Origin: an uncultured Christensenellaceae bacterium
Lineage (GTDB): Bacteria > Bacillota > Clostridia > Christensenellales > DTU072
Assembly: GCA_964432485.1 (NCBI GenBank)
Contig: CAYSNP010000003.1
Coordinates: forward strand, 20,232-84,231
Direction: 5' to 3'
Length of the DNA stretch: 64,000 nucleotides
Shown here piece by piece: positions 1,869 through 57,572 of the stretch. A model generated the notes under the pieces. It did not search any database, was not told where the DNA came from, and saw only the letters and a list, made by a program, of their open reading frames with translations. The translations under genes and the position numbers were made by a program. Position 1 is the stretch's first letter. Each line of letters starts with the position of its first letter.

Positions 1869-1951
1869 GAGCCGGATTATACCTAATTGCTGTAAAAATA
1901 AGCATATTCTATCTTTTTAATATAAAAATAGTAAAAATTCTTATTTTGCTA

Positions 1952-1980
1952 TTGAAAACTAGATAAGATTATGATATTAT
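1952..1980 (+). promoter_or_regulatory. sigma-A-like promoter (TTGAAA-17-TATTAT) upstream of the first motif-only gene
   Basis: TTGAAA at 1952-1957, a 17-nt spacer, TATTAT at 1975-1980. The same TTGAAA-17-TAnnnT layout recurs at 3743 and 6492. Confidence 0.4.
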
Positions 1981-2173
1981 TTATAAGCAAATAAAAACTA
2001 AGCCCAATAAGTGCATGTTTTTATTGGAGCAAGCTTTGTGCTTAATAGCAGATATAGAAGCCCTTGGGATATGATTTGGCAGGACATTCGGCCTTTTTGC
2101 TGATTTTGTCGATGCTGATAAGTAAAAAGAATAACATACAAAAATATAAAAAACTAAAAAGGAGTTTATTCAA

Positions 2174-2392
2174 ATGGCAAAAAAGAAAAAAGTAGAAGAA
2201 GTAGTAGCAGTTGAACAAGCACCCGTACAGAAAAGACCCAGCGTTTCTTTTAGAGTAATGAATAATTGCGGCCCTGTACCTATTGCAAAACCTGCTGATT
2301 TTATACAGCTTACTCCGATTGTTCAACCTGTAGCATTGGTACCTTATTCTACACAAGCCCAACCAATGGCTACTTTTGACGACGAATATTAA
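2174..2392 (+). CDS. 72-aa motif-only protein (paralog 1 of 3), function unknown
   Basis: AAAGGAG RBS. The C-terminal 52 aa are nearly identical to ORFs 3401..3619 and 5481..5702, although many third-codon positions differ. No TM segment or signal peptide. Confidence 0.8.
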   Translation: MAKKKKVEEVVAVEQAPVQKRPSVSFRVMNNCGPVPIAKPADFIQLTPIVQPVALVPYSTQAQPMATFDDEY

Positions 2393-2443
2393 ACCCATTT
2401 TACAAGAGTAACTTACCTTATTTAATGCGGTTTAATAGCCATT

Positions 2444-2488
2444 GCAATACAACTTAAAAATAATGATTTTTTTAAGTTTGTGTATTGC
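2444..2488 (+). terminator. imperfect hairpin after the first small gene (possible terminator)
   Basis: gcaatacaacttaaaaa / tttttaagtttgtgtattgc form inverted arms with a bulge. There is no clean T-run, and the hairpin overlaps the next promoter. Confidence 0.3.
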
Positions 2489-2513
2489 GTAATAGATTTT
2501 TGTATGTTATAAT
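2485..2513 (+). promoter_or_regulatory. extended -10 promoter (TTGCGT-17-TGnTATAAT)
   Basis: TGTTATAAT at 2505-2513, with TTGCGT 17 nt upstream. Precedes the membrane gene at 2558. Confidence 0.4.
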
Positions 2514-2557
2514 CAGTTAGAAAGCAAATCATAAAAATTATTGAAGGAGGTAATCCA

Positions 2558-3385
2558 ATGAGCAACAAGAGCAACATTGCGGTAACACCGCGTGAAGTCG
2601 CTCCTACACCAGCTCCTGAGTCTGCAATTCCTTATAACGTGACCTCTAAGATTAAAGTTTCGCCATATTACCTTAGTTTTTTAGAAAGCTATGATAAAAA
2701 ATATGACGAAATGGTTTCTTATGGCTCCAATGGTCCTGTTGCAGCAAGTTATGCTCAACCGGCATCCAAGGCAAAAAAGGCAAAGAAAGCATTGGCATCC
2801 GGCAGCGTAAAAAAGAGGAAAGTTATTGTATTTTTGGTACTGGTGTTAATGGCGGTAGTATTGGCAGTAGGAGTGTTGGGCTATTTACAGCTTGACGCTG
2901 TTAAAGAGTATGTAGGTGTCTTAAATGCCAATGAGGAGGATGTCTATTTCCATGACCCTGTATTTGGAGCATTGGAAAAGTGGGCATCTGATTTTGTACC
3001 TAAACTTGGCGATTCTGTCTATTATGATAGCTATCTGTCTACCATACAAACTGACAATATAGCTATTACTATTAGCTTATATGTACTGCCTGCAGCATTG
3101 GTACTTATTGTTTTATTTGCAATTATTGTAATTATTAAAGCATTAGTCGCCCTATTGAGCAAAAAGGATTGCAAGCTTGGCTTCCTATCCTTACTTACCG
3201 CTATCTTTGGCTTATTTGTAGCCGGATGCGGAGTTATTTGGAATAATATGGGGTTTGCTGAAATAATTAACTTTATCAAGATGGATGCGGCAAATGTAAG
3301 TGCGGCATACGGACTTTACGCTCTGATAGGCTTGCCTCTTATAGCAGCAATACTCAGTGCGTTCGCTTATAAAAAAATCAAATAA
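2558..3385 (+). CDS. multi-pass membrane protein (275 aa) with a cytoplasmic N-terminal VSPYY region, function unknown
   Basis: GAAGGAGG RBS. Lys-rich linker (KAKKAKKAL..KKRK) followed by several hydrophobic helices. The N-terminal KVSPYYLSFLESYDKK resembles TVSPYFHSYADAFSEK of ORF 3817. Confidence 0.7.
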   Translation: MSNKSNIAVTPREVAPTPAPESAIPYNVTSKIKVSPYYLSFLESYDKKYDEMVSYGSNGPVAASYAQPASKAKKAKKALASGSVKKRKVIVFLVLVLMAVVLAVGVLGYLQLDAVKEYVGVLNANEEDVYFHDPVFGALEKWASDFVPKLGDSVYYDSYLSTIQTDNIAITISLYVLPAALVLIVLFAIIVIIKALVALLSKKDCKLGFLSLLTAIFGLFVAGCGVIWNNMGFAEIINFIKMDAANVSAAYGLYALIGLPLIAAILSAFAYKKIK

Positions 3386-3400
3386 AAAGGGGTATTAAAA

Positions 3401-3619
3401 ATGGCAAAAAAAGCTAAAAATGTTGAAGAAGTAGTAGTAGCTCCACAAGCTGCACCTAAAAGGCCTAGTGTTTCTTTTAGAGTTATGAACAACTGCGGTC
3501 CTGTGCCCATTGCAAAACCGGCAGACTTTATACAATTGACTCCTGTTGTGCAACCGGTAGCAATGATTCCATATTCTACACAGGCGCAACCTATGGCTAC
3601 ATTTGATGACGAGTATTAA
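3401..3619 (+). CDS. 72-aa motif-only protein (paralog 2 of 3)
   Basis: Starts 15 nt after the membrane gene stop. The sequence RPSVSFRVMNNCGPVPIAKPADFIQLTPVVQPVAMIPYSTQAQPMATFDDEY is conserved with the other two paralogs. Confidence 0.8.
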   Translation: MAKKAKNVEEVVVAPQAAPKRPSVSFRVMNNCGPVPIAKPADFIQLTPVVQPVAMIPYSTQAQPMATFDDEY

Positions 3620-3642
3620 AATATACTAACTAAGGAAGCGTT

Positions 3643-3677
3643 ACAAGGACTGCCAAAATGTGCAGTCCTTGTTTTTC
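3643..3677 (+). terminator. rho-independent terminator
   Basis: acaaggactgc / gcagtccttgt form an 11-bp stem followed by TTTTTC. Confidence 0.8.
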
Positions 3678-3742
3678 TAGATTAAAAAGTAAAAGAAAAG
3701 GTAATTTTTTTTAACTTTATAGAAATTATTTAGGTTTCACTA

Positions 3743-3771
3743 TTGAAATTGCAATTATATTATGGTAAACT
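3743..3771 (+). promoter_or_regulatory. sigma-A-like promoter (TTGAAA-17-TAAACT)
   Basis: Hexamers and spacing read directly from the sequence. Located 45 nt upstream of the ATG at 3817. Confidence 0.4.
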
Positions 3772-3816
3772 ATATACAATTGTAATTATTAGTACTATAT
3801 TTATGGGAGAGCGTAT

Positions 3817-4914
3817 ATGGCAAATGAAATCAACAAAAAAAAGTCAGTGATTAAACCCAACGATTTTATTACTGTCTCGCCTTATTTTCACTCTTACGCT
3901 GATGCTTTTTCTGAAAAGGAAAAAGAGTTAGCGCTCCATGGCAGTTATTCAACAAGGGCATATACTAAGGATTTTGGTCCTATAGCAGAAAAAGTTGCAC
4001 CAGCTCCGGTGGCTGCTGCGCCGGTTATCGAAGCAGAAGTCAAAAAAAGCAAGAAGGAGTTAGCCAGAGAAGCTGCGGAGGCCGAAGCTGCCCAACAGCG
4101 GGAAGCTAAGAAAAGGCGTATCGAAGAGGCAAAACTGCTAAAAAGACAAGAGCGCATTAAGAAAATTAAGCGTAAGAGAATTAAGCGTGAAAAAGATTAC
4201 TTCTTTGTTATGAACAAAGGCTTATGCGTTATTATGATTATCTTTATGTTGCTTACTTTAGCTCTTATGAGCATTAGTATTGTAGGGATGGATGCAATTG
4301 AGCCATATACCTCAGCTTTTAAGCAGCCTGACTTGACTCCCGTTGAGGAGCGGATTGCCACAACAGACCCTGAAACAGGGGAAGAAATCCCTTATGCGGA
4401 GCAAGTTTCTTATATAGGCTTCTTAGACCCTGTCTATGGATTTGCTAAGGCTAGTTTGGGCTTAGAGCTAGGCGAATCGCCTCTTTATGATGCACAAGTG
4501 AGCAAGGCAGAGCTGGAAGGTATGGATCCTATAGCGGCTATTGTGCTGGTTTGGTATCCTGTAGCTCTTTTACTATTTGCAGTCCTTGTACTGCTCAACT
4601 TGATAAAAGCATTCTTTGGCATATTAGGCAGACGGATATTTAAGCGTTTTGGGCTTAACTCCATCCTTATGATGATAATGGTAGTTGCATTCCTATTTGC
4701 AGGATATTGTACCAATCTCGAAGCGGGAGCACCTTTGGATTTTGCAGGCTTGCTGCCTTTTGCAACTCAATTGTTCTCATCTCCCGTAGACGGAGCAGGT
4801 GCGCTATCCGTAGTAATGGGCATAGGCAGTATCGGCTTATTTGTGTTGTCTATCTTATCACTACTGCTTTCGTTTGGGATACGCAAAAAAGTGCCCTACA
4901 GTATATTCGATTAA
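3817..4914 (+). CDS. multi-pass membrane protein (365 aa) with an N-terminal VSPYF region and a charged coiled linker, function unknown
   Basis: GGGAGAG RBS. The N-terminus is paralogous to ORF 2558. Contains an EAEAAQQREAKKRRIEEAKLLKRQERIKKIKRKRIKREK linker followed by hydrophobic helices. Confidence 0.7.
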   Translation: MANEINKKKSVIKPNDFITVSPYFHSYADAFSEKEKELALHGSYSTRAYTKDFGPIAEKVAPAPVAAAPVIEAEVKKSKKELAREAAEAEAAQQREAKKRRIEEAKLLKRQERIKKIKRKRIKREKDYFFVMNKGLCVIMIIFMLLTLALMSISIVGMDAIEPYTSAFKQPDLTPVEERIATTDPETGEEIPYAEQVSYIGFLDPVYGFAKASLGLELGESPLYDAQVSKAELEGMDPIAAIVLVWYPVALLLFAVLVLLNLIKAFFGILGRRIFKRFGLNSILMMIMVVAFLFAGYCTNLEAGAPLDFAGLLPFATQLFSSPVDGAGALSVVMGIGSIGLFVLSILSLLLSFGIRKKVPYSIFD

Positions 4915-4944
4915 AAATAAACTGAGATAAGGAGATTTAATAAT

Positions 4945-5439
4945 ATGGCAAAAGGTAAAAAAACTTATAAGAAAAGAGTAGTGGTATTGATTCTGATTCT
5001 GGTGCTGGCTATTGTATCAATCGGCGTACCCATTGTATCTAGCTTAAAACTGCTGGAGGAGCATATTGATATTGGTGTCGATATACTTGGGGTTGCAGAC
5101 CTTTTTGCAGACGGTTTTAGCTTTGATATAATAAAAGACAACATATCTGTCTGGGTGCTGGGCGTGTATATGCTGGTAGCGCTGATACTGGTGCTGAAAG
5201 GTTTGTTTGCTTTACTTGTTCGCGGTAAAAAGAGGTTTGGTTTGGCAGCAATAATCACTTTGCTTCTTGGTGTAGTGTTTATATTGGCAGAGTTTGACTT
5301 TGACTTTGAGCTTATAGGAGAGCTGGCAGGTGAGCCTAAGCTTTTGGCAGAGACCATTGATTATGGCGTTTATGCAATGGTTGGAGCACCTCTCTTGATT
5401 TTGATTCTTAGCTTATTTACATATAAGAAAAAGAATTAG
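4945..5439 (+). CDS. small multi-pass membrane protein (164 aa), function unknown
   Basis: AAGGAG RBS. About 4 hydrophobic helices. Ends ..LSLFTYKKKN, similar to the ..SAFAYKKIK end of ORF 2558. Confidence 0.65.
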   Translation: MAKGKKTYKKRVVVLILILVLAIVSIGVPIVSSLKLLEEHIDIGVDILGVADLFADGFSFDIIKDNISVWVLGVYMLVALILVLKGLFALLVRGKKRFGLAAIITLLLGVVFILAEFDFDFELIGELAGEPKLLAETIDYGVYAMVGAPLLILILSLFTYKKKN

Positions 5440-5480
5440 ATTGTCTAAAATAAATAATCATTTAATAAAGGAGTATTCTA

Positions 5481-5702
5481 ATGGCTAAAAAGAATAAAAA
5501 AGTGGAAAGTGTTGAAGTAGTTCAGCAGGCTCCTGTTGCTAAAAGACCTAGTGTTTCTTTTAGGGTTATGAATAATTGCGGCCCTGTGCCTATTGCAAAA
5601 CCTGCCGACTTTGTTCAGCTTACACCTGTTGTGCAACCTGTAGCAATGGTGCCCTATTCTACCCAAGCTCAGCCGATGGCAACCTTTGATGACGAATATT
5701 AA
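5481..5702 (+). CDS. 73-aa motif-only protein (paralog 3 of 3)
   Basis: AAAGGAG RBS. The C-terminal 52 aa are nearly identical to the paralogs at 2174 and 3401. Confidence 0.8.
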   Translation: MAKKNKKVESVEVVQQAPVAKRPSVSFRVMNNCGPVPIAKPADFVQLTPVVQPVAMVPYSTQAQPMATFDDEY

Positions 5703-5718
5703 GCCATATTCTTAATTA

Positions 5719-6432
5719 ATGCCAAGAGCACATAAGCGAGCCCTAGACTCTCAAGACTTAGGTGCTAGCATAGATAATGATAAAGCCAGGCCTAAAGGCG
5801 TCAAGGCGTCCCTTAGGCCTTTATCAACAGGTAGCGGACCTGTAGCAATTGTGCCGCCGGCAGAAAAGGTACAATTGGCGCCGGTTGTTCAACCTTTGGC
5901 GCTAGTGCCTTATTCTTCGCAAAAGCAGCCGCTTTTCATTCAAGAAGAGCAAAAGGTAAAGCAAAACAGTCCGCAATTGCCGGAAAAGCGTTTAGAGAAA
6001 GTAGCCTCTAAAAAACCTATTATGGCAGCAGTGCTCACAATGCTTTGCATTTTAGCACTTGTGATAATGATTATAGGTGATTTTCTCTTGCAAAATATCT
6101 TATCGCTAGCAAATGGGCAAGGGATAACATATATAGCTATAAGTCTACTGGATGCAGTTAATCAAGGCTCTTTCTTTACTATTAGTAATATTGTGGAAGT
6201 TGCTTTGTTAGCCTCTTTTGTTCTATACATTATTTTGCTTATTGTTTTGGTGAGTTTGCGTAGCAGCGGCGTCAGTTTTGCAGTAAAGATATTAGCATTT
6301 ATTATTACGGTACTACAGTTGGGCACCGCTATATTTTGCTATAATGTCGGGACTGCCAATTTGGGTATCTACATTTCTGCAGGGCTGGCTTTAGTGATTA
6401 TGCTTGCAAGTTTTTCAGCAAAGAGGGAATGA
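5719..6432 (+). CDS. fusion protein: N-terminal VQP-ALVPY motif plus a C-terminal multi-pass membrane domain (237 aa)
   Basis: GPVAIVPPAEKVQLAPVVQPLALVPYSSQKQPLF is followed by about 5 hydrophobic helices. No obvious SD sequence. The ATG lies 17 nt after the upstream stop, so the exact start is uncertain. Confidence 0.6.
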   Translation: MPRAHKRALDSQDLGASIDNDKARPKGVKASLRPLSTGSGPVAIVPPAEKVQLAPVVQPLALVPYSSQKQPLFIQEEQKVKQNSPQLPEKRLEKVASKKPIMAAVLTMLCILALVIMIIGDFLLQNILSLANGQGITYIAISLLDAVNQGSFFTISNIVEVALLASFVLYIILLIVLVSLRSSGVSFAVKILAFIITVLQLGTAIFCYNVGTANLGIYISAGLALVIMLASFSAKRE

Positions 6433-6491
6433 AAAAAGCTTAATCGGCATACTTAATTTACAGTTTCATAATATGTATTCGATAAAATCTA

Positions 6492-6520
6492 TTGAAAAAA
6501 ACAAGGTTATAGTATATACT
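6492..6520 (+). promoter_or_regulatory. sigma-A-like promoter (TTGAAA-17-TATACT)
   Basis: Hexamers and spacing read directly from the sequence. Located upstream of the gene at 6567. Confidence 0.4.
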
Positions 6521-6566
6521 AGAGGTATGTAAGATTTCTTTGCTGTAAAAAACTAATGGAGGCTGT

Positions 6567-6944
6567 ATGAAAAGGAAAAAGAAAAAAGGCAGAGGCGAAC
6601 AGCGACTTTCCATAGAAAGGAATGTTACTCCCCCTCCTACACCTAACGGGAATATGCCTATTATTCAAGAGCCTATAGGCGGTACTAAAATGCTGCCTAA
6701 TACAAGCAAGTTTACGGTAGTCCCTAACGGTATGCCTATGGGACTGGCTCGGTATAGCCAAGTGGACGAATACGGTAGAGAGTTTACGCCTATAATGATG
6801 TACGGTCCTCAACCTAACAGTTCACCTGTACCTATTGCAAGACCTGCACAAATTGTTCAGGTAGCTCCTGTAGTTACACCCTTAGCTCTTGTGCCTTATG
6901 CAACGCAAAATCAAGAGCTTTATCAATATGAAAAAGAAGAATAG
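6567..6944 (+). CDS. 125-aa soluble protein ending in the VQP-ALVPY motif
   Basis: GGAGG RBS. The C-terminus reads SPVPIARPAQIVQVAPVVTPLALVPYATQNQELYQYEKEE. Confidence 0.7.
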   Translation: MKRKKKKGRGEQRLSIERNVTPPPTPNGNMPIIQEPIGGTKMLPNTSKFTVVPNGMPMGLARYSQVDEYGREFTPIMMYGPQPNSSPVPIARPAQIVQVAPVVTPLALVPYATQNQELYQYEKEE

Positions 6945-6970
6945 CTATTGTAATACATTAAGAGAGAGAT

Positions 6971-8539: not shown

Positions 8540-8974
8540 ATGGCAAAAAAAAGGTCAAAATATGTTGCTAAAATAAGGGCAAGCCAAAAGCCTGCGCCTA
8601 CAGTCGATCCCAAAAGCGAAAAACTAAAAGAGCTTTCGGCAAAGGCAGAGTCTTTTCCTGAAACGGAAACTGCTTTAGCCGAAGCTGTCAAACCTGAAGA
8701 AACTGCTAAGCAAGCCGCCCCAAAAAAGGCAGCTCCTAAAAAGAGCGCGCAGCGTGCAAAGAAGAAGTTTGATATAGCAAAAAAGTTTCGTGAGGTGGTA
8801 AGCGAATTAAAAAAGGTGGATTGGCCGCCTTTTAAGAGCACTACACAACGCAGCGGCGTGCTGCAAAGCACTTCTACAGTGCTTGTTATGGTGCTTATTT
8901 TTGTTGTAATAGTAGTTGCTTTTGACTCCGGACTGCTGCAATTGCTTAGCTTGCTTACTCAAGCATCTAAATAG
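8540..8974 (+). CDS. secE: preprotein translocase subunit SecE with a long Lys/Ala/Pro-rich N-terminal extension
   Basis: The C-terminus (..VVSELKKVDWPPFKST.. plus a single TM helix) is SecE-like. Gene order rpmG-secE-nusG supports the call. Confidence 0.8.
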   Translation: MAKKRSKYVAKIRASQKPAPTVDPKSEKLKELSAKAESFPETETALAEAVKPEETAKQAAPKKAAPKKSAQRAKKKFDIAKKFREVVSELKKVDWPPFKSTTQRSGVLQSTSTVLVMVLIFVVIVVAFDSGLLQLLSLLTQASK

Positions 8975-8983
8975 GGGTAATAA

Positions 8984-9517
8984 ATGGAAGAAGCCAATGC
9001 TAAATGGTATGTGATTCATACTTATTCCACTTATGAAAGCGCAGTTAAAACCAATCTGGAAAAAATGATTGAAAATAACAACCTGCAAAAATATATTTAT
9101 GAGATAGCTATTCCCGTAGAAAAAGATATAGTAGAAAAAAACGGTAAGCGCAAAGTGGTGGAGCGCAAGAAATTTCCTGCTTATGTGTTTATTAAAATGA
9201 TATATACGGACAACCTATGGTATATGATTACCAATACCAGAGGTGTAACAGGTTTTGTCGGACCGGGCGGCAAAGGGCTGCCGCTGACCGTTGCCGAAAT
9301 CAAGCGTATGGGGCTGGAAAAGATTGATGCCGCTGAGTTTGATATTAAAGTGGGCGACAATGTCAGGGTAATAAGCGGTGCGCTGGAAACTTTTTTGGGC
9401 ACTGTAGAAGAAATCAATATGGAAAAGCAAAAAGTAAGAGTTATCGTGCATATGTTTGGCAGACAAACACCTGTTGAGTTGGAGTTTAACCAAATAGAAA
9501 AAATTAATTTAGTTTAA
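8984..9517 (+). CDS. nusG: transcription termination/antitermination factor NusG
   Basis: NGN start (WYVIHTYS..E) and a KOW region (GDNVRVISGALETFLGTVEEI). Synteny supports the call. Confidence 0.9.
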   Translation: MEEANAKWYVIHTYSTYESAVKTNLEKMIENNNLQKYIYEIAIPVEKDIVEKNGKRKVVERKKFPAYVFIKMIYTDNLWYMITNTRGVTGFVGPGGKGLPLTVAEIKRMGLEKIDAAEFDIKVGDNVRVISGALETFLGTVEEINMEKQKVRVIVHMFGRQTPVELEFNQIEKINLV

Positions 9518-10076
9518 GGAAAAACTGAATAAATACTCGTGCTGATTGCGGATAGATTTTGGGCTAGGTTGCGCCGGAGCGACGAAGGCTGTACTTGCGG
9601 TACAGACGAGGAGCGGAGGCGCAAGATAGTCTGAAAGATACCGCAAGCAGCCGAAAAGGCCTAAAAAGTGGACTTTTACTTGGATAATATGGTATAATTA
9701 GGGTATGAAAGCGCAGATGAATATAAGCGATTTAATGCAAAGTAGAGCATGCCTTTCATATAGTAAAAAACATCTTTGGGTTCAAGCGTATTCGCTACAA
9801 AGGCAAAGATAAAAACGACGGTCTTTTCCATATGCTCTTTGCAAGTGCCAACCTGTATAAGTTAGTGCGGCAAGGGAAAAGTTTGTCTTATATCAAAACA
9901 GGAGGATAAAAACTGATAAATGCCTTTAAATGACGCACTCTTGAAATCACAGCTCATCTTTTTGGCGTAAAACCGCTGAAATCGCTTGCCAATATTTCAA
10001 TATTGGCCGCGCGCCTTCATCAATTTTCCGTTCAAAAATCTGCGGCTGTATTTCAAGGTATTTGTTCAGTTTTTCC
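9518..10076 (+). mobile_element. 559-bp internally deleted IS5-like element (non-autonomous remnant) flanked by a TTAA duplication
   Basis: IR-L ggaaaaactgaaTaaatac (9518-9536) matches the reverse complement of 10058-10076 (ggaaaaactgaaCaaatac), 18/19. TTAA occurs at 9514-9517 and at 10077-10080. Contains a transposase C-terminal fragment. Confidence 0.7.
9736..9909 (+). pseudogene. C-terminal fragment of a DDE (IS5/IS1182-type) transposase
   Basis: Translation ..VEHAFHIVKNIFGFKRIRYKGKDKNDGLFHMLFASANLYKLVRQ.. matches the typical IS5-family C-terminus (FG..K.RYRG..KN......LFA.ANLY). No upstream catalytic part is present. Confidence 0.65.
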
Positions 10077-10152
10077 TTAAGATAAACTCACAAGTCTGGG
10101 AGGGAGGCAAACGCTCCCGCTGGAACCTAAATAGTTAAAAGGAGATATAACT

Positions 10153-10578
10153 ATGGCAAAAAAAATTACCGCAGTTGTTAAACTGCAACTCCCCGCCGGC
10201 AAAGCAACGCCCGGCCCGCCTGTAGGCTCAACATTAGGACCTTATGGCATCAATATTCCCGGTTTCACAAAGGAATTCAACGAAAAGACTAAGAATCAAA
10301 TGGGATTGATTATCCCCATTGTGATGACTATTTTTGCTGACCGTTCGTTTACCTTTATTATGAAAACCCCTCCTGCCGCAGTGCTGATTAAAAAGGCTTG
10401 CAATATTGAGCTCGGCAGCGCAATTCCTAATAAGACAAAGGTTGCTACCATAACCCGCGCACAAGTAAAAGAAATTGCACAAACTAAGCAAAAGGACCTC
10501 AATGCTGCCACTATTGAAACAGCAATGAGTATGGTAGAAGGCACAGCCCGCAGTATGGGCGTTACGGTTGTGGATTAG
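10153..10578 (+). CDS. rplK: 50S ribosomal protein L11
   Basis: [37 protein letters not shown] is canonical L11. Confidence 0.95.
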
Positions 10579-10587
10579 GAGGCGGAA

Positions 10588-11268
10588 ATGAAAAGAGGAA
10601 AAGCATATATTGATTCTAAAAAATTAATAGAAAAGACCAAATTATATGATGCAGGCGAAGCCTTTGAGCTGATACTGCAAACTGCTAAAGCCAAGTTTGA
10701 CGAAACGATAGAGCTGCATATTAAGTTAGGCGTAGACCCCAGGCATGCTGACCAGCAAGTAAGAGGCGTACTTGTATTGCCTCACGGTACAGGTAAGACT
10801 GTCAGAGTATTAGTTATAGCAAAAGGACCAAAAGCGGATGAGGCAACAGCGGCAGGAGCTGACTTTGTAGGTGCGGAGGAATATGTCGAAAAGATTCAAA
10901 AAGGCTGGTTTGACTTTGATGTTTGCGTAACAACCCCTGATATGATGGGCTTAGTGGGCAGACTTGGCAAGCTGCTTGGACCTAAAGGGTTAATGCCCAA
11001 TCCCAAAAGCGGAACGGTTACCCCCAATGTTACCAAAGCCATAGAGGATATCAAGGCAGGTAAGGTAGAATACAGGGTAGACAAAAGCGCAATAATTCAT
11101 GTGCCTATCGGCAAAAAGTCTTTTGGCACGCAAAAGCTGGAGGAAAACTTTACCGCTCTAATGGATGCGGTGGTAAAAACAAAACCTGCCAGTGCTAAAG
11201 GCCGCTATATTAGGAGCGTAGCCATAGCTTCTACAATGGGGCCTGGCATTAAAATAAATTATGTATAA
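10588..11268 (+). CDS. rplA: 50S ribosomal protein L1
   Basis: 226 aa. [24 protein letters not shown] and [15 protein letters not shown] are canonical L1. Confidence 0.95.
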
Positions 11269-11276
11269 AGGTTTGC

Positions 11277-11305
11277 TTGACAGCACAATATAAATAATTT
11301 ATACT
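11277..11305 (+). promoter_or_regulatory. rplJL promoter (TTGACA-17-TATACT)
   Basis: Consensus -35 at 11277-11282, a 17-nt spacer, and -10 at 11300-11305. Confidence 0.55.
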
Positions 11306-11324
11306 TGATTTACAACTAAATATC

Positions 11325-11430
11325 AGCTTCACAGACAGCTTAGCGCCTATGGGCTTAAAATTCGCTAGCCGAGAAGAGAACAATTGTTCAGAGCAATTTT
11401 AACTCCGTGTCTGTGGCGCGGAGTTTATTA
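11325..11430 (+). promoter_or_regulatory. putative L10(L12)4 autoregulatory leader of rplJL
   Basis: The long-range stem cacagaca (11329-11336) / tgtctgtg (11408-11415) competes with the local hairpin aactccg..cggagtt (11401-11425) followed by TTTATTATT. The position matches known Firmicute L10 leaders. Not checked with a covariance model. Confidence 0.45.
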
Positions 11431-11450
11431 TTAAAAAAGGAGGTAAGAAA

Positions 11451-11936
11451 GTGTCTAAGTTTAGAGAACAAAAGGAACAAAAAGTAGAAGATATTAAAGA
11501 AAAGATTGCAAATGCTAAGTCCTTTTTACTAATTGATTACAAAGGCATAACCGTTGGGCAGGATACACTATTGCGCAAAGAGTATCGTGAAAACGGTTGC
11601 AGCTATGAAGTGCTTAAAAATAGCCTTTTGAAGATTGCGCTCAACGATATGGGCTATACGCAATTCGACGCATCGTTAAAAGGGCCAACCGCTGTGGCTA
11701 TGGCAAATACTGACGATATATCAGCACCTGCCCGAATAGCTTTTGCAAAAGCAAGAGAGTTTAGAAAAATGACTATCAAATGCGGACTGGCAGATGGAGA
11801 GTTTTTGGGTCAAGAGCAATGTAGAGAGCTTGCTTTACTGCCAAATAAAGAGACTCTTATTGCGCAACTGCTTGGAATGTTGCAAGCACCTATCGCATCT
11901 TTTGCCCGAGTTTTAGATGCAATAGCCACCAGATAG
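11451..11936 (+). CDS. rplJ: 50S ribosomal protein L10 (GTG start)
   Basis: AAGGAGG RBS, 161 aa, L10-like sequence, with rplL downstream. Confidence 0.9.
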   Translation: MSKFREQKEQKVEDIKEKIANAKSFLLIDYKGITVGQDTLLRKEYRENGCSYEVLKNSLLKIALNDMGYTQFDASLKGPTAVAMANTDDISAPARIAFAKAREFRKMTIKCGLADGEFLGQEQCRELALLPNKETLIAQLLGMLQAPIASFARVLDAIATR

Positions 11937-11966
11937 CCAAATAGGTAATAAAAAAGGAGAATAAAA

Positions 11967-12341
11967 ATGGCAGATTTAACAAAATTTATCGAAGAAATAA
12001 AAAAATTAACAGTATTGGAGCTCAATTCTTTAGTTAAGGCTTTAGAAGAGGAGTTTGGAGTAAGCGCAGCGGCGCAAGTAGCGGTAGGTGCGGGCCCATC
12101 ACTAGCCCCTGTGGAAGAAGTAGAAGAAAAGACCGAATTTGATGTCGTTATCAATAGCGTAGGCGACAAGAAAATTGCAGTCATTAAGGTAGTGCGTGAA
12201 GCAACCGGGCTGGGCTTAGTACAAGCAAAAGCATTGGTAGATGGCGCACCTGCTAAGGTAAAAGAAGCTATAGGCAAAGAAGAAGCTGATGAGCTTGTAG
12301 CTAAACTAAAAGAAGCAGGAGCTGACGCAGAAGCAAAGTAA
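11967..12341 (+). CDS. rplL: 50S ribosomal protein L7/L12
   Basis: Ala/Glu-rich hinge and a C-terminus ([30 protein letters not shown]....EA.....KLKEAGA) that are canonical L7/L12. Confidence 0.95.
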
Positions 12342-12360
12342 TTGCAGCAACTGCCGCAAA

Positions 12361-12509
12361 CCGTTTGCAAGCAAACGGCAGTAAGTACCGCCTAGCGGCG
12401 GCATGATGAGTTACCCTATGGGTAACATTATGTACATTGCTATCGCAATGCATTATGTACCATTTGCAAGCAAATGGCATTATGAACCCGCCTGACGGCG
12501 ACATTAAGG
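12361..12509 (+). repeat. array of six different short hairpins joined by CATKATGWA-type linkers, ending ACATTAAGG
   Basis: Hairpins lie at 12361-78, 12388-401, 12410-26, 12435-50, 12460-77 and 12488-500, with a period of 22-27 nt. Linkers are catgatga, attatgta, cattatgta and cattatgaa. Confidence 0.75.
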
Positions 12510-12540
12510 AAAAAAAAGACAGGCTTTTGCCCGTCTTTTG
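12510..12540. terminator. bidirectional rho-independent terminator between rplL and tsaD
   Basis: An A8 run, the stem aagacaggc / gcccgtctt (one mismatch), then TCTTTTG. Confidence 0.75.
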
Positions 12541-12563
12541 TCATTTATAGTAGGTAATAACAA

Positions 12564-13631
12564 TCAATTATGTTCGTCAATCTTTAATTCAGCAGTAGCG
12601 TCAAGAGTTAAGGGAGAAGGGAGCATACCTTCTTTTATAGCATAATAACTGGCTACTCCAATCATTGCCGCATTGTCTGTACAATGTTTTTTTTCCGGCA
12701 TATATAGCGTTGCGCCAACTTCCTCACAAGCGGTTCTTAGTTTTGAGCGCAGCAGCTCATTTGCTCCTACCCCGCCGGCAAGTATCACCTTGTCTATTTT
12801 TGTCCTTTGCACCGCTTTTATAGTATTGCTTACAAGTACACTTGCCACTTCCTCTTGAAAAGAGCATGCAATATCAGCCTTGGGTATGGGCAGCCCTTTT
12901 TGCTCCAGGTTGTGAACATAATTGACAATAGAAGTCTTTATTCCGCTAAAAGAAAAGTTTAGGTGTTCTTCCCCTTTAAAGCTTCGGGGCATTTTAATAC
13001 TGTTTTGTCCCTCTTTAGCCAGTATGCTGATTTTAGGGCCTCCGGGGTACTCTAACCCCAGCACCCTTGCCACTTTATCAAATGCTTCGCCTGCCGCATC
13101 ATCACGGGTAGAGCCTAATAACTCTATATCGTTATAGCTGTTCACTTTTGCAATAGCTGTATGCCCCCCGCTTACAATAAGCGCAATAGCGGGCAAGTTT
13201 ATATCGTGATAACCAAAATTGGCAAAGATATGCCCTTTAATATGATTGATTCCATAGCACGGAATGCCCAGCGCATAAGCCAAACTTTTGGCATAAGACA
13301 CGCCTACAATCAATGCTCCAAGCAGCCCCGCCCCATAGGTTACAGCAATAGCATTAATTTGGCCTGCCTTAACTCCCGCTTCTGCAAGCGCACACTCAAC
13401 AATATTGTCAATGGCGGCAATATGGTTGCGGCTTGCAATCTCAGGCACTACTCCGCCAAAGCGTTTATGGATATCTATTTGGCTCATAATTGACGAGCTT
13501 AAAATCCGCTTGCCTTGCAATACTGCTACCGCAGTTTCGTCACAACTGGTTTCTATGGCAAGAGTGAGGTAATCCTCTCTTGCCCGCAAAGCCTTGCCTA
13601 GCTTTAGTGCGGCAGTATAATACCTGCTCAT
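12564..13631 (-). CDS. tsaD: tRNA N6-adenosine threonylcarbamoyltransferase
   Basis: 355 aa. LAIETSCDETAVAV, HI.GH and GGVGANELLR are TsaD/Kae1 hallmarks. Confidence 0.9.
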   Translation of the reverse strand: MSRYYTAALKLGKALRAREDYLTLAIETSCDETAVAVLQGKRILSSSIMSQIDIHKRFGGVVPEIASRNHIAAIDNIVECALAEAGVKAGQINAIAVTYGAGLLGALIVGVSYAKSLAYALGIPCYGINHIKGHIFANFGYHDINLPAIALIVSGGHTAIAKVNSYNDIELLGSTRDDAAGEAFDKVARVLGLEYPGGPKISILAKEGQNSIKMPRSFKGEEHLNFSFSGIKTSIVNYVHNLEQKGLPIPKADIACSFQEEVASVLVSNTIKAVQRTKIDKVILAGGVGANELLRSKLRTACEEVGATLYMPEKKHCTDNAAMIGVASYYAIKEGMLPSPLTLDATAELKIDEHN

Positions 13632-14731
13632 AAGCCGCCCCTCTTGAGGTACTCAATAATAAACTCCTCTATCTCTCCATCCATAACCGCACCAATATCA
13701 GTCTTTTCGTAATTGGTTCGATGGTCCTTAACTAAGGTATAAGGACAAAACACATAAGAGCGTATTTGGGAGCCCCATTCTATCTTTTTGGTATCCCCTT
13801 TTAGCTTATTACTCTCCTCAAGCTGCTTTTCTTCCTTTAATTGTGCCAGCTTAGATTTCAGCATTTTCATAGCTGTATCTTTGTTTTGCATTTGGCTTCT
13901 TTCATTTTGGCATTGCACAACTATGCCTGTAGACAAATGCGTAATTCGGATTGCGCTATCGGTTTTGTTGACATGCTGTCCGCCCTTTCCGCTTGCTCTA
14001 AAGGTGTCTATCCTTATTTCCTCAGGCTTGATTACTATTTCGCTATCGTCAATAATTTCAGGCATAACTTCCAACGCTGCAAAAGAAGTGTGCCTCCGCT
14101 TGTTAGAATCAAAAGGGCTTATGCGCACAAGGCGGTGCACTCCCTTTTCCGCTTTTAGATACCCGTAAGCATTGGCACCGGAAATATAAAAAGTAACCCT
14201 TTTTATACCTGCTTCGTCTCCGTCAAGGTAATCCAGCTCCTCTATTTTATACCCTTTGTTTTCTGCATATCGGGTATACATACGATAAAGCATAGCCACC
14301 CAATCTTGGCTTTCTGTGCCGCCTGCTCCGGCATGCAAGGTAAGGAGCGCATTGTTATTGTCGTACTTGCCCCTCATCAATGCTTCTATGCTAAGCTTGG
14401 CGCATTCTTTTTCCGTTTGTAACAGCATAGAGCGCACATCCGCCGCCTCTTGCTCATCTTGAGCATCTTCTACCATATTTACCAGCTCTTCTATATCCAA
14501 AAGCTGCACTCGTAGCCCTTCTACGGTGCTTATTTTCTTTACTGCATCAGTTAATTCTTGATTGACTTTATGTGCCGCTATAGGGTCTTGCCAAAGACCC
14601 GCTTCCGCTTGTCTTTCCTCAAGTACTTTTACCCTTTTTTTCAGCTCATCAATATTATAAGCAGAAGCAATAACTTCTGCTTGCGCCTTCAAATCTGCTA
14701 AAAGTGCCTTTTCTTTATAAAAATCTATCAC
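13628..14731 (-). CDS. prfB: peptide chain release factor 2 (single uninterrupted frame)
   Basis: SPF tripeptide (RISPFDS), GGQ motif (SGKGGQHVNKTDSAIRITH), 367 aa. ATGA overlap with tsaD. Confidence 0.9.
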   Translation of the reverse strand: MIDFYKEKALLADLKAQAEVIASAYNIDELKKRVKVLEERQAEAGLWQDPIAAHKVNQELTDAVKKISTVEGLRVQLLDIEELVNMVEDAQDEQEAADVRSMLLQTEKECAKLSIEALMRGKYDNNNALLTLHAGAGGTESQDWVAMLYRMYTRYAENKGYKIEELDYLDGDEAGIKRVTFYISGANAYGYLKAEKGVHRLVRISPFDSNKRRHTSFAALEVMPEIIDDSEIVIKPEEIRIDTFRASGKGGQHVNKTDSAIRITHLSTGIVVQCQNERSQMQNKDTAMKMLKSKLAQLKEEKQLEESNKLKGDTKKIEWGSQIRSYVFCPYTLVKDHRTNYEKTDIGAVMDGEIEEFIIEYLKRGGL

Positions 14732-14734
14732 AAT

Positions 14735-17407
14735 TTATTTTCCGCAACACATTTTATACTTCTTGCCCGAACCGCAAGGGCAAGGAGAATTTCTGCCCGG
14801 TCTAGAATTAACTTTTACGGTAATTTTTTCCGCTTCTTGCCTTTGCCGCTCCATAAAAGCATTGCGCCTTTCTATCACTTGTTCGACATTTACTTTGCAC
14901 AATATAATAGCGGCACTATTTTGTATGCTTTCTATCATATCGTCAAACATTTCAAAACCTTCTCTGCGATACTCCAGCACAGGGTCTTTTTGCCCGTATC
15001 CTCGCAAGCCTACTCCCTGTTTTAGCGCATCCATAGCGTCAATATGGTCCATCCAATGCCTGTCCACTTGATTGAGCAGCACCGTCCTTTCTGTTTCTCT
15101 AAAATCTATACCGCTGCTTTCCGCTAAAGCCAGCTTTTCGTCAAATTGCTTGCAAGCCTCACTATAAACAGCGTCCACAATAGCGTGAAAATCAATTTTG
15201 CCGCAAAGCTCGGGCGTGATAATATTTGTGCCCTTTTTCAGCACTTTTTGCTCAAGTGCGCTATTAAAGCCTTCTATATCTATCTCTATATCGTCGCCTT
15301 CTTTGAAGTCCACAAAACTGGTCACTATTGAACTGCAAATAGGCTCTATAAACCGCTTAATCTGTTCATGCACATCGGCGCCCTTTAGCACATCGTCCCT
15401 TTGCGAATAAATAAGTTCCCTTTGCTTATTCATAACATCATCGTAATTAAGCACATATTTTCTGCGCTCAAAGTTGTTTTCCTCACAGCGTTTTTGCGCA
15501 TTTTCTATTTGTTTAGCCAGTAGCGGCATTTGAATTACTGTATCCTCATCTCGGGTTAGCGTCTCTACCATAGATTTTAGCCTGTCGCCGCCAAAACGCT
15601 TTAACAGCTCATCCTCAAAAGACAAATAAAATAAGCTGCCGCCCTCATCGCCCTGACGCCCCGTTCTGCCTCTAAGCTGATTGTCTATGCGCCTGCTCTC
15701 ATGTCTTGTAGTGCCTATCACTCTAAGCCCGCCAAGGCTTTTTACCTCTTCTTTTTCCGCATCGGTAATTGCTTTATACTCTGTTACAAGCTCCTTGAAT
15801 TTTTGTCGGGCAGCTATTAAGTTTTCCTCTTTCAAATTGATAAAAGAGTCTGCATAATATATTTCCTCCGACGTGTAGCCCAAATTTTCCATAGCTCTTT
15901 TGGCCATATATTCAGGGTTGCCGCCTAGCAGAATATCTGTGCCTCGACCCGCCATATTGGTTGCAATTGTGACCGCTCCTTTTCTGCCCGCTTGCGCAAT
16001 AATTTCCGCTTCTCGGGCATGGCTTTTAGCATTTAGCACATTATGAGTTATCTTTTTCTTTTTTAGCAATGAGCTTATATGCTCACTTACATCCACATCC
16101 ACCGTGCCTACCAGCATAGGTTGCCCTTTTGCATGCAATTCTACAATTTCGTCAATCACAGCATCATATTTTTTATTAAGAGAAAGATAAACCTTGTCCG
16201 GCTCATCAGCCCTTATCAAAGGCATATTTGTAGGTATTTCAATAACATCCAACTCATAAATCCCTCTGAACTCTCCTTCCTCAGTCATAGCAGTACCGGT
16301 CATACCGCTAAGTTTTTTATAAAGACGAAACAAATTTTGAAAAGTTATGGTAGCAATAGTTTTATTTTCCTTTTTTACCTTAACATTCTCTTTAGCCTCT
16401 ATTGCTTGGTGCAAACCTTCGGAATAGCGGCGGCCTATCATTTTGCGGCCGGTAAACTCGTCTACAATAATAACTTCGCCATTTTCTACGATATAATCCT
16501 TATCCCTTTGCATAATTTTGCAAGCCCGCAAGGCAGAATTGATTTTAAGGTTAAGGTCTGCATTTTCTGCAGTACTTAAATTGTCAATCCTAAAGAAACG
16601 CTCTGCCTTTTCCACACCGCTTTCATTGAGATATACATTCTTATCCTTTTCGTCTATGGTATAGTCCTCTTCTCGCAAACCGCTGATAAAGCGATTGACC
16701 GTAAAGTAAATATCGCTGGATCTCCCGATAGGAGCGGAAATAATAAGAGGGGTGCGTGCCTCATCAATTAAAATGCTGTCCACCTCGTCAATAATGGCAA
16801 AGTTTTGCCCTCGCTGCATTTTATGCTCCATCTTAGTAGCCATATTATCTCTAAGATAATCAAAACCTATCTCGTTATTGGTAGCGTAAGTAATATCCGA
16901 ATTGTATGCCGCTTTTTTATCTTCTGCCGGCATATTGTTTAGGATTACACCCACGCTAAGCCCAAGGAACTTATAAATCTTGCCCATCCATTCAGCGTCA
17001 CGGGCTGCCAAATAGTCATTGACGGTTACAATATGCACCCCTTTTTCCTCTAGCGCATTGAGATATGCAGGCAAGGTTGCTACCAAAGTTTTACCTTCGC
17101 CGGTCTTCATTTCTGCAATCCTGCCTTGGTGCAATGCTATGCCGCCAACCAATTGCACGTAAAAGTGGCGCATATTCAGCACTCTTTTAGACGCCTCTCT
17201 TACTACCGCAAAAGCCTCAGGCAATATATCGTCAAGAGTTTCGCCCGCTTTTAGCCTTTCTTTGAAGACTGTAGTTTGCGCTCTTAGCTCCTCATCCGAA
17301 AATGCTGCGTAATGCTCCTCAAGAGCCTCTATTTTATCAGCTATAATTCTTAGTTTTTTTAGCTGTTTTTCTTTTTCTTTTCCAAATAGTTTACTAAAGA
17401 AACCCAT
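14735..17407 (-). CDS. secA: preprotein translocase ATPase SecA
   Basis: 890 aa. Walker A MKTGEGKTL, DEVDSILIDEARTPLIIS, and a C-terminal zinc finger CPCGSGKKYKMCCGK. Confidence 0.95.
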   Translation of the reverse strand: MGFFSKLFGKEKEKQLKKLRIIADKIEALEEHYAAFSDEELRAQTTVFKERLKAGETLDDILPEAFAVVREASKRVLNMRHFYVQLVGGIALHQGRIAEMKTGEGKTLVATLPAYLNALEEKGVHIVTVNDYLAARDAEWMGKIYKFLGLSVGVILNNMPAEDKKAAYNSDITYATNNEIGFDYLRDNMATKMEHKMQRGQNFAIIDEVDSILIDEARTPLIISAPIGRSSDIYFTVNRFISGLREEDYTIDEKDKNVYLNESGVEKAERFFRIDNLSTAENADLNLKINSALRACKIMQRDKDYIVENGEVIIVDEFTGRKMIGRRYSEGLHQAIEAKENVKVKKENKTIATITFQNLFRLYKKLSGMTGTAMTEEGEFRGIYELDVIEIPTNMPLIRADEPDKVYLSLNKKYDAVIDEIVELHAKGQPMLVGTVDVDVSEHISSLLKKKKITHNVLNAKSHAREAEIIAQAGRKGAVTIATNMAGRGTDILLGGNPEYMAKRAMENLGYTSEEIYYADSFINLKEENLIAARQKFKELVTEYKAITDAEKEEVKSLGGLRVIGTTRHESRRIDNQLRGRTGRQGDEGGSLFYLSFEDELLKRFGGDRLKSMVETLTRDEDTVIQMPLLAKQIENAQKRCEENNFERRKYVLNYDDVMNKQRELIYSQRDDVLKGADVHEQIKRFIEPICSSIVTSFVDFKEGDDIEIDIEGFNSALEQKVLKKGTNIITPELCGKIDFHAIVDAVYSEACKQFDEKLALAESSGIDFRETERTVLLNQVDRHWMDHIDAMDALKQGVGLRGYGQKDPVLEYRREGFEMFDDMIESIQNSAAIILCKVNVEQVIERRNAFMERQRQEAEKITVKVNSRPGRNSPCPCGSGKKYKMCCGK

Positions 17408-21322: not shown

Positions 21323-21574
21323 GTCATTGCGAGCGTTAGCGAAGCAATCCAGCCTCCGGAGCGCTGCTCCTTGAATAAAATAACCTTACAGCGCCTTGCT
21401 CCTTTGCCCCACCTTAATCATTTGCGTACCGCAAATGTATTTCATCATTTACGCAGTAAATGGATTGCATCACTTGCTTCAGCAAGTGCATTTCATCACG
21501 CTTTAGCGTGTATAATTGCCCTGGATTGCTTCGGCACTTTGTGCCTCGCAAAGACGGTAAGGCAAAGTCATTGC
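21323..21574. repeat. composite palindromic repeat element; core is a 4-hairpin array in inverted orientation (21407-21523)
   Basis: Left arm gtcattgcgag..cgaagcaatccag, right arm ctggattgcttcg..ctcgcaaagac. The reverse complement of the core equals gggcaattatacacgctaaagcgtg-atgaaatg-cacttgctgaagcaagtg-atgcaatc-catttactgcgtaaatg-atgaaata-catttgcggtacgcaaatg-attaaggtgggg. Confidence 0.75.
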
Positions 21575-29698: not shown

Positions 29699-29722
29699 AA
29701 AGTATAAAAGGAGAAAACTATA

Positions 29723-54866: not shown

Positions 54867-55010
54867 AAAAAGTTATTGATGTTAAATAAGAAAACTAAAT
54901 ATAGCCAAGTGCGACCTTTTTAATTAATATCAAGATTTTGTTTGACCAAACAATAAAATATGTTATAATTAAATTAGGGTATTTTGCACGGTATAAGAAT
55001 AGGAGAAATT

Positions 55011-56946: not shown

Positions 56947-56947
56947 T

Positions 56948-57563: not shown

Positions 57564-57572
57564 GTAAATACC

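Follow-up and report, generated by a model that had tools for sequence, protein, structure and literature searches.

Intergenic palindromic repeats of bacteria include REP (repetitive extragenic palindromic) sequences with their bacterial interspersed mosaic elements (BIMEs), and the BOX elements. Much work on REP/BIME and BOX exists for Proteobacteria and streptococci, and our literature searches found no description of such repeats for uncultured Clostridia. Here, we analyse a stretch of 64,000 nucleotides (the window) from an uncultured Christensenellaceae bacterium (contig CAYSNP010000003.1), in which a row of six different short hairpins, the rplL-tail array, lies in the 3' untranslated region (3' UTR) of rplL, the gene for ribosomal protein L7/L12. 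We suggest, with a probability of roughly 0.7, that this array is a diverged copy of an internal hairpin-cassette module, that the module belongs to a family of intergenic DNA repeats that are lineage-specific, modular and non-autonomous, resembling BOX, BIMEs and MITEs (miniature inverted-repeat transposable elements), and that the array is passively co-transcribed. We distinguish three types of array by their linkers, i.e. ATGAAATG in type A, CATTATGTA in type B and RTGAKAT in type C.

Like the units of the arrays described here, REP sequences are short palindromes outside genes that are rich in G+C and flanked by a conserved unpaired tag, and they are mostly found 3' of genes between convergent or unidirectional open reading frames (ORFs) (PMC3733652); the arrays have the same distribution. 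Both also cluster into mosaics whose linkers are short, differ in copy number from strain to strain and serve as targets of insertion sequences (IS), an IS fragment being present at an array in the relatives' sequence L032. However, REP units are imperfect and 20-40 bp long, whereas the hairpins here are perfect and 12-20 nt long with stems of 4-8 bp and loops of 2-6 nt. In place of the GTAG/CGTC tag, they carry CATTATGTA, ATGAAATG or RTGAKAT, and type B hairpins are preceded by GTA(C/T). While REPs mostly form inverted (head-to-head/tail-to-tail, HH/TT) dimers and their families show head-to-tail order rarely or never, the cassettes here are all arranged head-to-tail, and only whole type A and type B arrays form inverted pairs. 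Moreover, several different stems follow each other in a fixed order, and no REP-associated tyrosine transposase (RAYT) was found among the 10 small window ORFs scanned. The original prediction did not recognise the array as a described REP/BIME class, which is borne out by the absence of the GTAG/CGTC tag, the shorter units and the head-to-tail arrangement. The REP paper PMC3733652 mentions neither Firmicutes nor Clostridia.

In BOX elements of pneumococci and S. suis (boxA-(boxB)n-boxC), conserved complementary ends enclose a variable number of tandem internal modules (PMC3049150). Like the arrays, they are intergenic repeats of Firmicutes, cluster with other repeat families, lack a transposase of their own and are often co-transcribed as 3' adducts (PMC3049150). 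The likeness to the arrays was assessed by architecture and not by sequence similarity: type A has 2-4 hairpin modules between fixed ends and type B has 0-5 cassettes, in keeping with an A-Bn-C layout. In contrast to the 45-nt boxB module, the units here are 22-27 nt long, and each is a perfect hairpin of its own with a stem that differs from those of its neighbors and with an invariant unpaired linker. Neisserial intergenic mosaic elements (summarised in PMC3049150 and PMC3733652) likewise consist of interleaved short repeats that are reshuffled between strains, comparable to a spacer that here measures 626 nt in one strain and ~1555 nt in another, but they are built from other repeat units, and no dRS3-like 20-bp repeats are present here.

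The original prediction likened the array to an inverse CRISPR, with a constant linker and variable palindromes. The regular alternation of constant and non-constant parts with a period of ~25 nt does recall CRISPR; however, the constant part is unpaired and only 8-9 nt long, as opposed to direct repeats of 24-48 bp with unique spacers, the copies are short, dispersed and numerous, the palindromes are identical between copies and recur in the same order, and no cas context was seen. Thus, the palindromes are a small, ordered and inherited set, and the array is therefore one diverged copy of a module and no accumulator of novel hairpins. Small dispersed repeats (SDRs) of Nostoc, which Elhai et al. 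are said to have described in 2008, reportedly resemble the arrays in having very small hairpin units (21-27 nt) that are nested or arrayed at a specific short motif and carry compensatory changes, and they were proposed to be structure-dependent mobile units. Phylum and sequences are different, and mobility of single cassettes is here a proposal only. Overall, BOX elements and REP/BIME mosaics are the nearest counterparts. At the level of the composite elements described below, the family has most of the structural features by which MITEs and BOX are defined, and it is apparently undescribed.

A row of perfect hairpins between rplL and its terminator

The sequence at 12361-12509 reads as originally described. 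It contains six perfect short hairpins (H1-H6) with stems of 8, 5, 7, 6, 8 and 4 bp and loops of 2-4 nt, connected by linkers of 8-11 nt, which are in order CAGTAAGTA, CATGATGA, ATTATGTA, CATTATGTA and CATTATGAA(CC), and it ends 3' in ACATTAAGG. The location in the rplL 3' UTR is confirmed by the ORF and the terminator on either side: the rplL stop codon is followed by the array, a separate canonical terminator and the convergent tsaD.

11967-12341, + strand: rplL ORF (ribosomal protein L7/L12), with the stop codon 5' of the array
12361-12378, + strand: H1, CCGTTTGC-AA-GCAAACGG, a paralogue of H5 that lies outside the canonical five-cassette module
12388-12401: H2, CCGCC-TAGC-GGCGG
12410-12426: H3, GTTACCC-TAT-GGGTAAC
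12435-12450: H4, CATTGC-TATC-GCAATG
12460-12477: H5, CCATTTGC-AA-GCAAATGG
12489-12500: H6, CGCC-TGAC-GGCG
12514-12539: intrinsic terminator hairpin, AAAAGACAGGC-TTTT-GCCCGTCTTTT, with an A-run 5' and a T-run 3'; kept in a relative with 86% TsaD identity
12564-13631, - strand: tsaD, convergent with rplL

The window was scanned for chains of perfect hairpins with stems of at least 5 bp and gaps of 6-11 nt, and 100 dinucleotide-preserving shuffles of the 64 kb served as control. The rplL-tail array is the longest chain in the window (five hairpins with 34 bp). A chance origin of the row is excluded because the 100 shuffles never exceeded three hairpins with 22 bp. Folding z-scores of the array are -4.2 and -7.5 for RNA of the + and - strand, respectively, and -4.75 for DNA.

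H1-linker-H2 and H5-linker-H6 represent a direct duplication of ~45 nt with 82-83% identity. This duplication is old and means that the sequences of the six hairpins are not all independent. A single G-C to A-T double change separates H1 from H5; the compensatory pair that the original prediction had pointed out is therefore real, and pairing is maintained.

The array hairpins have no T-runs and lack the combination of G+C-rich hairpin and U-tract that defines intrinsic terminators. No promoter-like sites were found in or beside the arrays, and Rfam 15 had no match at gathering thresholds in the window or at the related loci; the Rfam matches that overlap arrays are at chance level (e.g. the ceN69 snoRNA with E=0.034). 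Weak matches to C/D-box small nucleolar RNAs (ATGATGA, GTGATGA) were rejected as chance, with the complementary flank on the wrong side of the would-be D box CTGA. Bacteria are not known to have C/D RNAs. A kink-turn reading of the linkers was dropped for lack of a partner strand, and the TAACTGA repeats (PMC4679880) are plain heptamer tandems and offer no analogue.

The rplL-tail array is a diverged type B module

A metagenome scan with the type A pattern yielded true relatives at six loci that lie outside the window; all six come from JGI 3300028603 and from a ~97%-identical strain, and further relatives of the arrays are present in L032 and L038. The sample analysed comprises the ~64 kb window and roughly 100 kb of sequence from relatives, mostly from one metagenome. 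The organism is present in JGI 3300028603 and 3300015214, in ENA ERZ27247346 and ERZ27247376 and in SRR11702754; landfill or digester material is the source of such samples. The six loci from JGI 3300028603 also contain type B arrays and type C arrays, the latter ending in GTTAAGGTGGGATT. Type B is made up of five ordered cassettes with the stems CCGCC, CATTGC, CCACC, TCAATGC and TTGCC and the invariant linker CATTATGTA.

Canonical type B module (~125 nt), first part: AAGTA-CCGCC..GGCGG-CATTATGTA-CATTGC..GCAATG-CATTATGTA-CCACC..GGTGG-CATTATGTA
Canonical type B module, last part: TCAATGC..GCATTGA-CATTATGTA-TTGCC..GGCAA-CATTATATTG
12383-12509, + strand: diverged type B copy, 5' part: AAGTA-H2(CCGCC/GGCGG)-CATGATGA-H3(GTTACCC/GGGTAAC)-ATTATGTA-H4(CATTGC/GCAATG)-CATTATGTA
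12383-12509, diverged type B copy, 3' part: H5(CCATTTGC/GCAAATGG)-CATTATGAACC-H6(CGCC/GGCG)-ACATTAAGG

Alignments match H2-H6 of the rplL-tail array one by one, and in the same order, to the cassettes of the canonical type B arrays in L017, L020 and L032. Individual pieces of the array match by BLAST over 22/22, 35/37 and 16/17 nt, and one piece matches a type C cassette over 22/24 nt. A covariance model, as proposed in the original prediction, was built from five type B arrays. It scores the rplL-tail array at 121 bits and detects nothing else in the window, and it recovers every type B array of the analysed sequences together with weaker copies in L016 (E=2e-6), L017 (E=0.002) and, weakly, in L026 (E=0.018), a relative with 78% TsaD identity.

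All three window loci, with five arrays in 64 kb, lie between convergent ORFs. In the relatives, arrays are found between convergent or co-directional genes and, in one case, upstream of a gene. Their orientation relative to transcription is variable: at 21.4 kb type A runs antisense to the upstream gene, at 57 kb it runs in the sense direction, A and B arrays face opposite ways within one spacer, and L032 has eight hairpins in a row that result from the head-to-head fusion of one type A and one type B array. A shared ..TTAAGG ending was considered as proof that A and B are homologous in the same direction and was discarded, as the shared leader (GCAATCYAGGGCA..TATACA) places B in reverse relative to A; the orientation of the homology between the two types is ambiguous.

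In viral contigs, the type A pattern gave two unrelated matches and the type B pattern only unrelated tandem repeats and iteron-like sequences. A spurious ORF across a type A array had a single match in the protein database and opened no route to more copies, and literature searches with the repeat sequences returned unrelated primers only.

Type A arrays form the core of composite elements

Hairpin-cluster scans and motif searches of the window detected related type A arrays at two other loci, in four copies. A type A array has the linker ATGAAATG, 2-4 hairpins with a fixed first (H1) and last (Hlast) hairpin, and the terminal sequence ATTAAGGTGGGG. The motif GATGAAATGCA occurs eight times vs 1.7 times expected.

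21407-21524, - strand: four-hairpin type A array, GGGCAATTATACAC-H1(CACGC/GCGTG)-ATGAAATG-H2-ATGCAATC-H2'-ATGAAATA-Hlast(CATTTGCG/CGCAAATG)-ATTAAGGTGGGG
21323-21350, no strand assigned: terminal inverted-repeat arm of the composite element, GTCATTGCGAGCGTTAGCGAAGCAATCC
21523-21555, no strand assigned: partner inverted-repeat arm, GGATTGCTTCGGCACTTTGTGCCTCGCAAAGAC, with an orthologous arm in L038 and L039
56947-57572, + strand: mosaic spacer between convergent genes, with three tandem composite units and GGATTGC../..GCAATGAC palindromes
56947-57041, 57141-57235 and 57384-57479, + strand: three-hairpin type A arrays of the mosaic spacer

Type A arrays are usually framed by inverted arms of 28-33 nt, GTCATTGCGAG..CGAAGCAATCC (..GCAATCC) on one side and GGATTGC..CTCGCAATGAC on the other, and the consensus of the arms is GTC(A/T)TTGCGAG..GCAATCC and GGATTGC..CTCGCAA(A/T)GAC. 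The resulting composite units measure ~190-300 nt, contain no plausible ORF, fold strongly and are multicopy; they are thus non-coding and below the ~600 bp that delimit MITE- and BOX-sized elements. A 12-nt sequence, CAAAGTCATTGC, flanks the composite element of the window.

The inverted-repeat motif is more widely shared, in the form GTC(A/T)TTGCGAG-N-GCGAAGCAATCC / GG(A/G)TTGCTTCGC-N-CTCGCAA(A/T)GAC. It is found in the window at 21323-21350, 21523-21555 and 57074-57142 and in L033 at 1503-1590, and an intergenic region of a Methylobacterium plasmid (NZ_CP087107.1) has it as a hairpin with ~36 nt between the arms and 94% identity over 34 nt. Clostridia-like and alphaproteobacterial genomes thus share an almost identical short palindrome. 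This was the sole match of the composite element in BLAST searches of plasmids and phages. Translations of the motif (..LAMT.., ..RRSNP..) presumably also occur in spurious ORFs of many phyla.

The presence of modules and cassettes differs between strains

The arrays are modular. Type A arrays contain H1 and Hlast alone, with H2, with H2' or with both, and the edges of the gaps fall into the linkers. Type B arrays have 5, 4, 3, 2 or 0 cassettes. The spacer downstream of the orthologue of the window's 175-aa gene illustrates this variation: L038 has the same inverted-repeat arm, a four-hairpin A array and then a three-cassette B array, and in the otherwise well-aligned orthologous spacer of L039 the whole A module is absent, with the short direct repeat AGGGC/AGGC flanking the junction. 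The L039 spacer also has zero B cassettes, with ..AATG joined to TTAC at the junction, and a short direct repeat, xxAATG, is present at the cassettes. Synteny breaks at the element, beyond which pgm follows in the window and a GFO_IDH_MocA gene in L038 and L039.

The mosaic spacer also points to fast turnover and rearrangement. It spans 626 nt in the window (56947-57572) and ~1555 nt in the ~97%-identical strain L020, where its module content is different. A segment of 107 nt (57279-57385 in the window, 1370-1476 in L020) is 97% identical and inverted relative to the flanking genes, a sign that inverted repeat copies have recombined. In the relatives, contigs frequently stop at array repeats, and no autonomous element was found in the ~160 kb of sequence from the window and its relatives.

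In L032 (1290-1650), the third type A array stops after its second hairpin, and a fragment of an rve-domain (IS3-family-like) ORF lies just beyond. We read this fragment as an IS insertion into the array and not as a partner transposase; it would parallel the role of REPs as IS targets.

The array is not a fixed feature of rplL

An identical RplL protein, which has the Pfam domains Ribosomal_L12_N and Ribosomal_L12, is encoded on five contigs from other samples, the DNA of which is ~97% identical to the window. Alignments and BLAST coordinates agree that four of the hairpins are gone and two remain in all five sister assemblies.

12371-12474, + strand: segment of 104 nt missing in the five ~97%-identical assemblies, from the right half of H1 through the left half of H5; the position is ambiguous by 2 nt

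In this short allele, CCGTTTGC is joined directly to AATGG, and the first hairpin, CCGTT-TGC-AATGG, takes its left arm from H1 and its right arm from H5. We favour a deletion, through recombination of H1 with H5, over an insertion because the hairpin of the short allele is an H1/H5 chimera and the H1-H2/H5-H6 duplication is old (82% identity).

More distant relatives were collected via TsaD, and rplL/tsaD synteny is retained in all of them. The taxonomy is approximate, with the TsaD relatives at ~60% identity being NCBI metagenome-assembled genomes (MAGs) whose organism tags begin with 'Chr', 'Clo' and 'Bac'. The relative with 86% TsaD identity has no array; instead, 130 nt of unrelated AT-rich sequence precede the same terminator. 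In the 78% and 72% relatives, a different segment of ~130 nt follows rplL, and the 78% relative has a small hairpin array ending in GTTAAGGTG on the tsaD side of the terminator. Thus, the array is not a conserved or rplL-specific feature because it is absent or replaced at the same locus in relatives and partly deleted in sister strains.

Further observations concern this locus. The ~130-nt segment 3' of rplL (GAGCGCTGCATAGCGGCACATATGCAAGCTGCGAGTGCC...) occurs once in L026 (11225-11425, minus strand) and in three tandem copies in L030 (3060-3495, minus strand), and it may be another structured repeat or 3' UTR element. The terminator at 12514-12539 probably works in both directions. Upstream of rplJ (11311-11438), a match to the ribosomal protein L10 leader RF00557 stays just under the gathering score (39.3 vs 44 bits, E=0.0003) and probably reflects a true L10 leader that has diverged. 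In the gene order at 8540-17407, secE-nusG-rplKAJL is followed by convergent tsaD-prfB-secA in place of rpoBC, and this synteny is kept down to 72% TsaD identity.

Stems and linkers are constrained while loops drift

Among the three canonical type B paralogues, 8/19 loop columns are variable vs 0/36 linker columns (Fisher p=6e-5) and 3/56 stem columns. With the rplL copy and one more array added, 96.3% of the cells form standard pairs and none of the 109 paired cells is G-U. Changes occurred on both sides in 11 of the 23 pairs and on one side in none, a count that rests partly on the assumed positional homology of the cassettes. These type B values are higher than in any of 500 shuffles and in any slid control. 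In type A, H1 and Hlast have invariant stems, and H2 has one compensated and one uncompensated change.

This strictly Watson-Crick pattern fits maintenance at the level of DNA as well as, or better than, selection at the level of RNA. Possible means of such maintenance are a protein that recognises hairpin plus tag and template-switch correction of quasi-palindromes. Because the stems stay Watson-Crick and the linkers are invariant while the loops drift, stem plus linker would be what is recognised or copied.

Other features of the window

Several regions without arrays also drew attention. At 42177-47675, two adjacent paralogues of ~2.75 kb (914 and 917 aa) are 98% identical over the first 300 nt and ~75-79% identical over the remainder, and their 5' ends may have undergone recent gene conversion. 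Several ORFs at 1500-6950 share an 84-nt repeat encoding PVPIAKPADFIQLTPVVQPVA(L/M)VPYSTQ-like motifs, with five copies that are 67-85% identical to the reference copy; these ORFs make up one family of repeat proteins. At 55935-55987, a perfect tandem repeat of 9 nt, GAAGAAAAG x5.9, lies in the overlap of the E/K-rich C-terminal tail of ORF 54984-56009 with the K/R-rich N-terminus of ORF 55933-56946, the start of which is uncertain. Finally, 29120-35585 apparently encodes a type I restriction-modification cluster, with an HsdS specificity domain in the first ORF (29120-29698) followed by large ORFs.

Discussion

The arrays form a family that is modular, polymorphic between strains and constrained in stems and linkers, and we suggest the following model for its evolution. 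In this model, the basic module would be a head-to-tail series of short perfect palindromes with a constant unpaired linker of 8-9 nt (CATTATGTA in type B, ATGAAATG in type A), to which complete elements would add a leader, a trailer and terminal inverted repeats of 28-33 nt (GTCATTGCGAG..GCAATCC / GGATTGC..CTCGCAATGAC). The elements would build up where insertion is tolerated, i.e. mostly 3' of genes and often between convergent genes. Their evolution would take place at the level of DNA, with cassettes and modules being gained or lost at short identical linkers or other short direct repeats, with similar hairpins recombining and with copies acting as breakpoints of rearrangements. A trans-acting, hairpin-recognising DNA enzyme and/or hairpin-templated correction may keep stem and linker intact; the mechanism of mobilisation and any effect at the RNA level are what we infer here. 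The rplL copy would be a decayed internal module. It lies upstream of the terminator and is therefore co-transcribed with rplL, and the stem-loops in the mRNA could act as a generic barrier to 3' exonucleases or as a pause site, in line with proposals for REP and BOX elements, and would not represent a dedicated regulator of rplL.

Several observations weigh against this model. Terminal inverted repeats, a leader and a trailer are all missing from the rplL copy. All polymorphisms can also be read as deletions or recombination, and none demonstrates true transposition, in which a target-site duplication would accompany a new insertion. A scan of 10 small window ORFs gave no transposase- or RAYT-like gene. 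The long rplL allele is known from the window alone, and an assembly artefact through the repeats is conceivable. A function in binding RNA or protein would explain the invariant linkers equally well. Moreover, the analysis covers a small sample, and no more than three matches of the type A pattern, all by chance, came up among the representative genomes of 185,579 species, so that the organism is not one of these representatives.

A more radical variant is that the hairpin-plus-linker cassette itself is the unit of propagation, inserted or copied beside the linker (xxAATG / CATTATGTA) by a structure-specific single-stranded DNA enzyme (HUH/Y1-like or other), which would recognise a short perfect hairpin tagged by the linker and would so build up head-to-tail arrays of different palindromes. 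Such a mechanism, which we nonetheless consider unlikely, is compatible with the zero-cassette site in L039, with cassette indels bounded exactly by linkers, with the invariance of the linkers and with stems that are strictly Watson-Crick. If true, cassette propagation would give Clostridia a class of REP-like mobile DNA that is new and separate from both GTAG/CGTC REPs and BOX. We likewise give only a small chance to the possibility that the hairpin clusters were recruited by the host as a feature of gene ends, i.e. as an auxiliary terminator, an insulator of convergent genes or a 3' structure that stabilises mRNA. Such roles have been proposed for REP/BIME and hairpin clusters (PMC3733652, PMC8355165, PMC3049150) and would suit an array between the rplL stop codon and the terminator as well as the position of all three window loci between convergent genes. 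However, an extra canonical terminator is present at two of the loci and U-tracts are missing from the array hairpins, close strains can do without the arrays, some copies are located upstream of a gene or in the interval of co-directional genes, and the same location pattern is equally expected of tolerated selfish insertions.

The linkers are also central to the idea that the arrays are functional RNAs, in which unpaired linkers would provide multivalent sites for a protein or RNA, and the array would act as a sponge or a 3'UTR-derived small RNA that tunes L7/L12 or a target in trans. Linkers that are invariant while loops drift, robust folding of the hairpins and the position of the array within the rplL transcript, 5' of the terminator, speak for this idea. 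By contrast, the orientation relative to flanking genes varies and types A and B point in opposite directions, no array is present at the locus in the 86% relative and the sister strains have lost four hairpins, neither promoter-like sites nor an Rfam match were found, and zero G-U among 109 paired cells would be unusual under selection at the RNA level. We therefore regard a dedicated RNA function as improbable. The individual stems are short, and the original prediction had allowed for chance palindromes in a single UTR, with no further arrays and no covariation. What was found instead are arrays at two more window loci, many homologous arrays in relatives and strong covariation, in addition to a row of five hairpins with 34 bp that none of the 100 shuffles approached (at most three hairpins with 22 bp), which leaves chance with next to no likelihood.

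Thus, a family of modular, non-autonomous DNA repeats, of which the rplL-tail array is a diverged copy, is the explanation that we favor, and the array says nothing specific about the regulation of rplL. Its architecture is unusual in that different mini-hairpins follow each other head-to-tail in a fixed order with an invariant unpaired linker and are nested in composite elements bounded by inverted repeats. The contrast between invariant linkers and drifting loops predicts that some factor reads "hairpin plus tag". In practical terms, the elements fragment metagenome assemblies and mark breakpoints of rearrangements, and they could serve as markers to distinguish strains.

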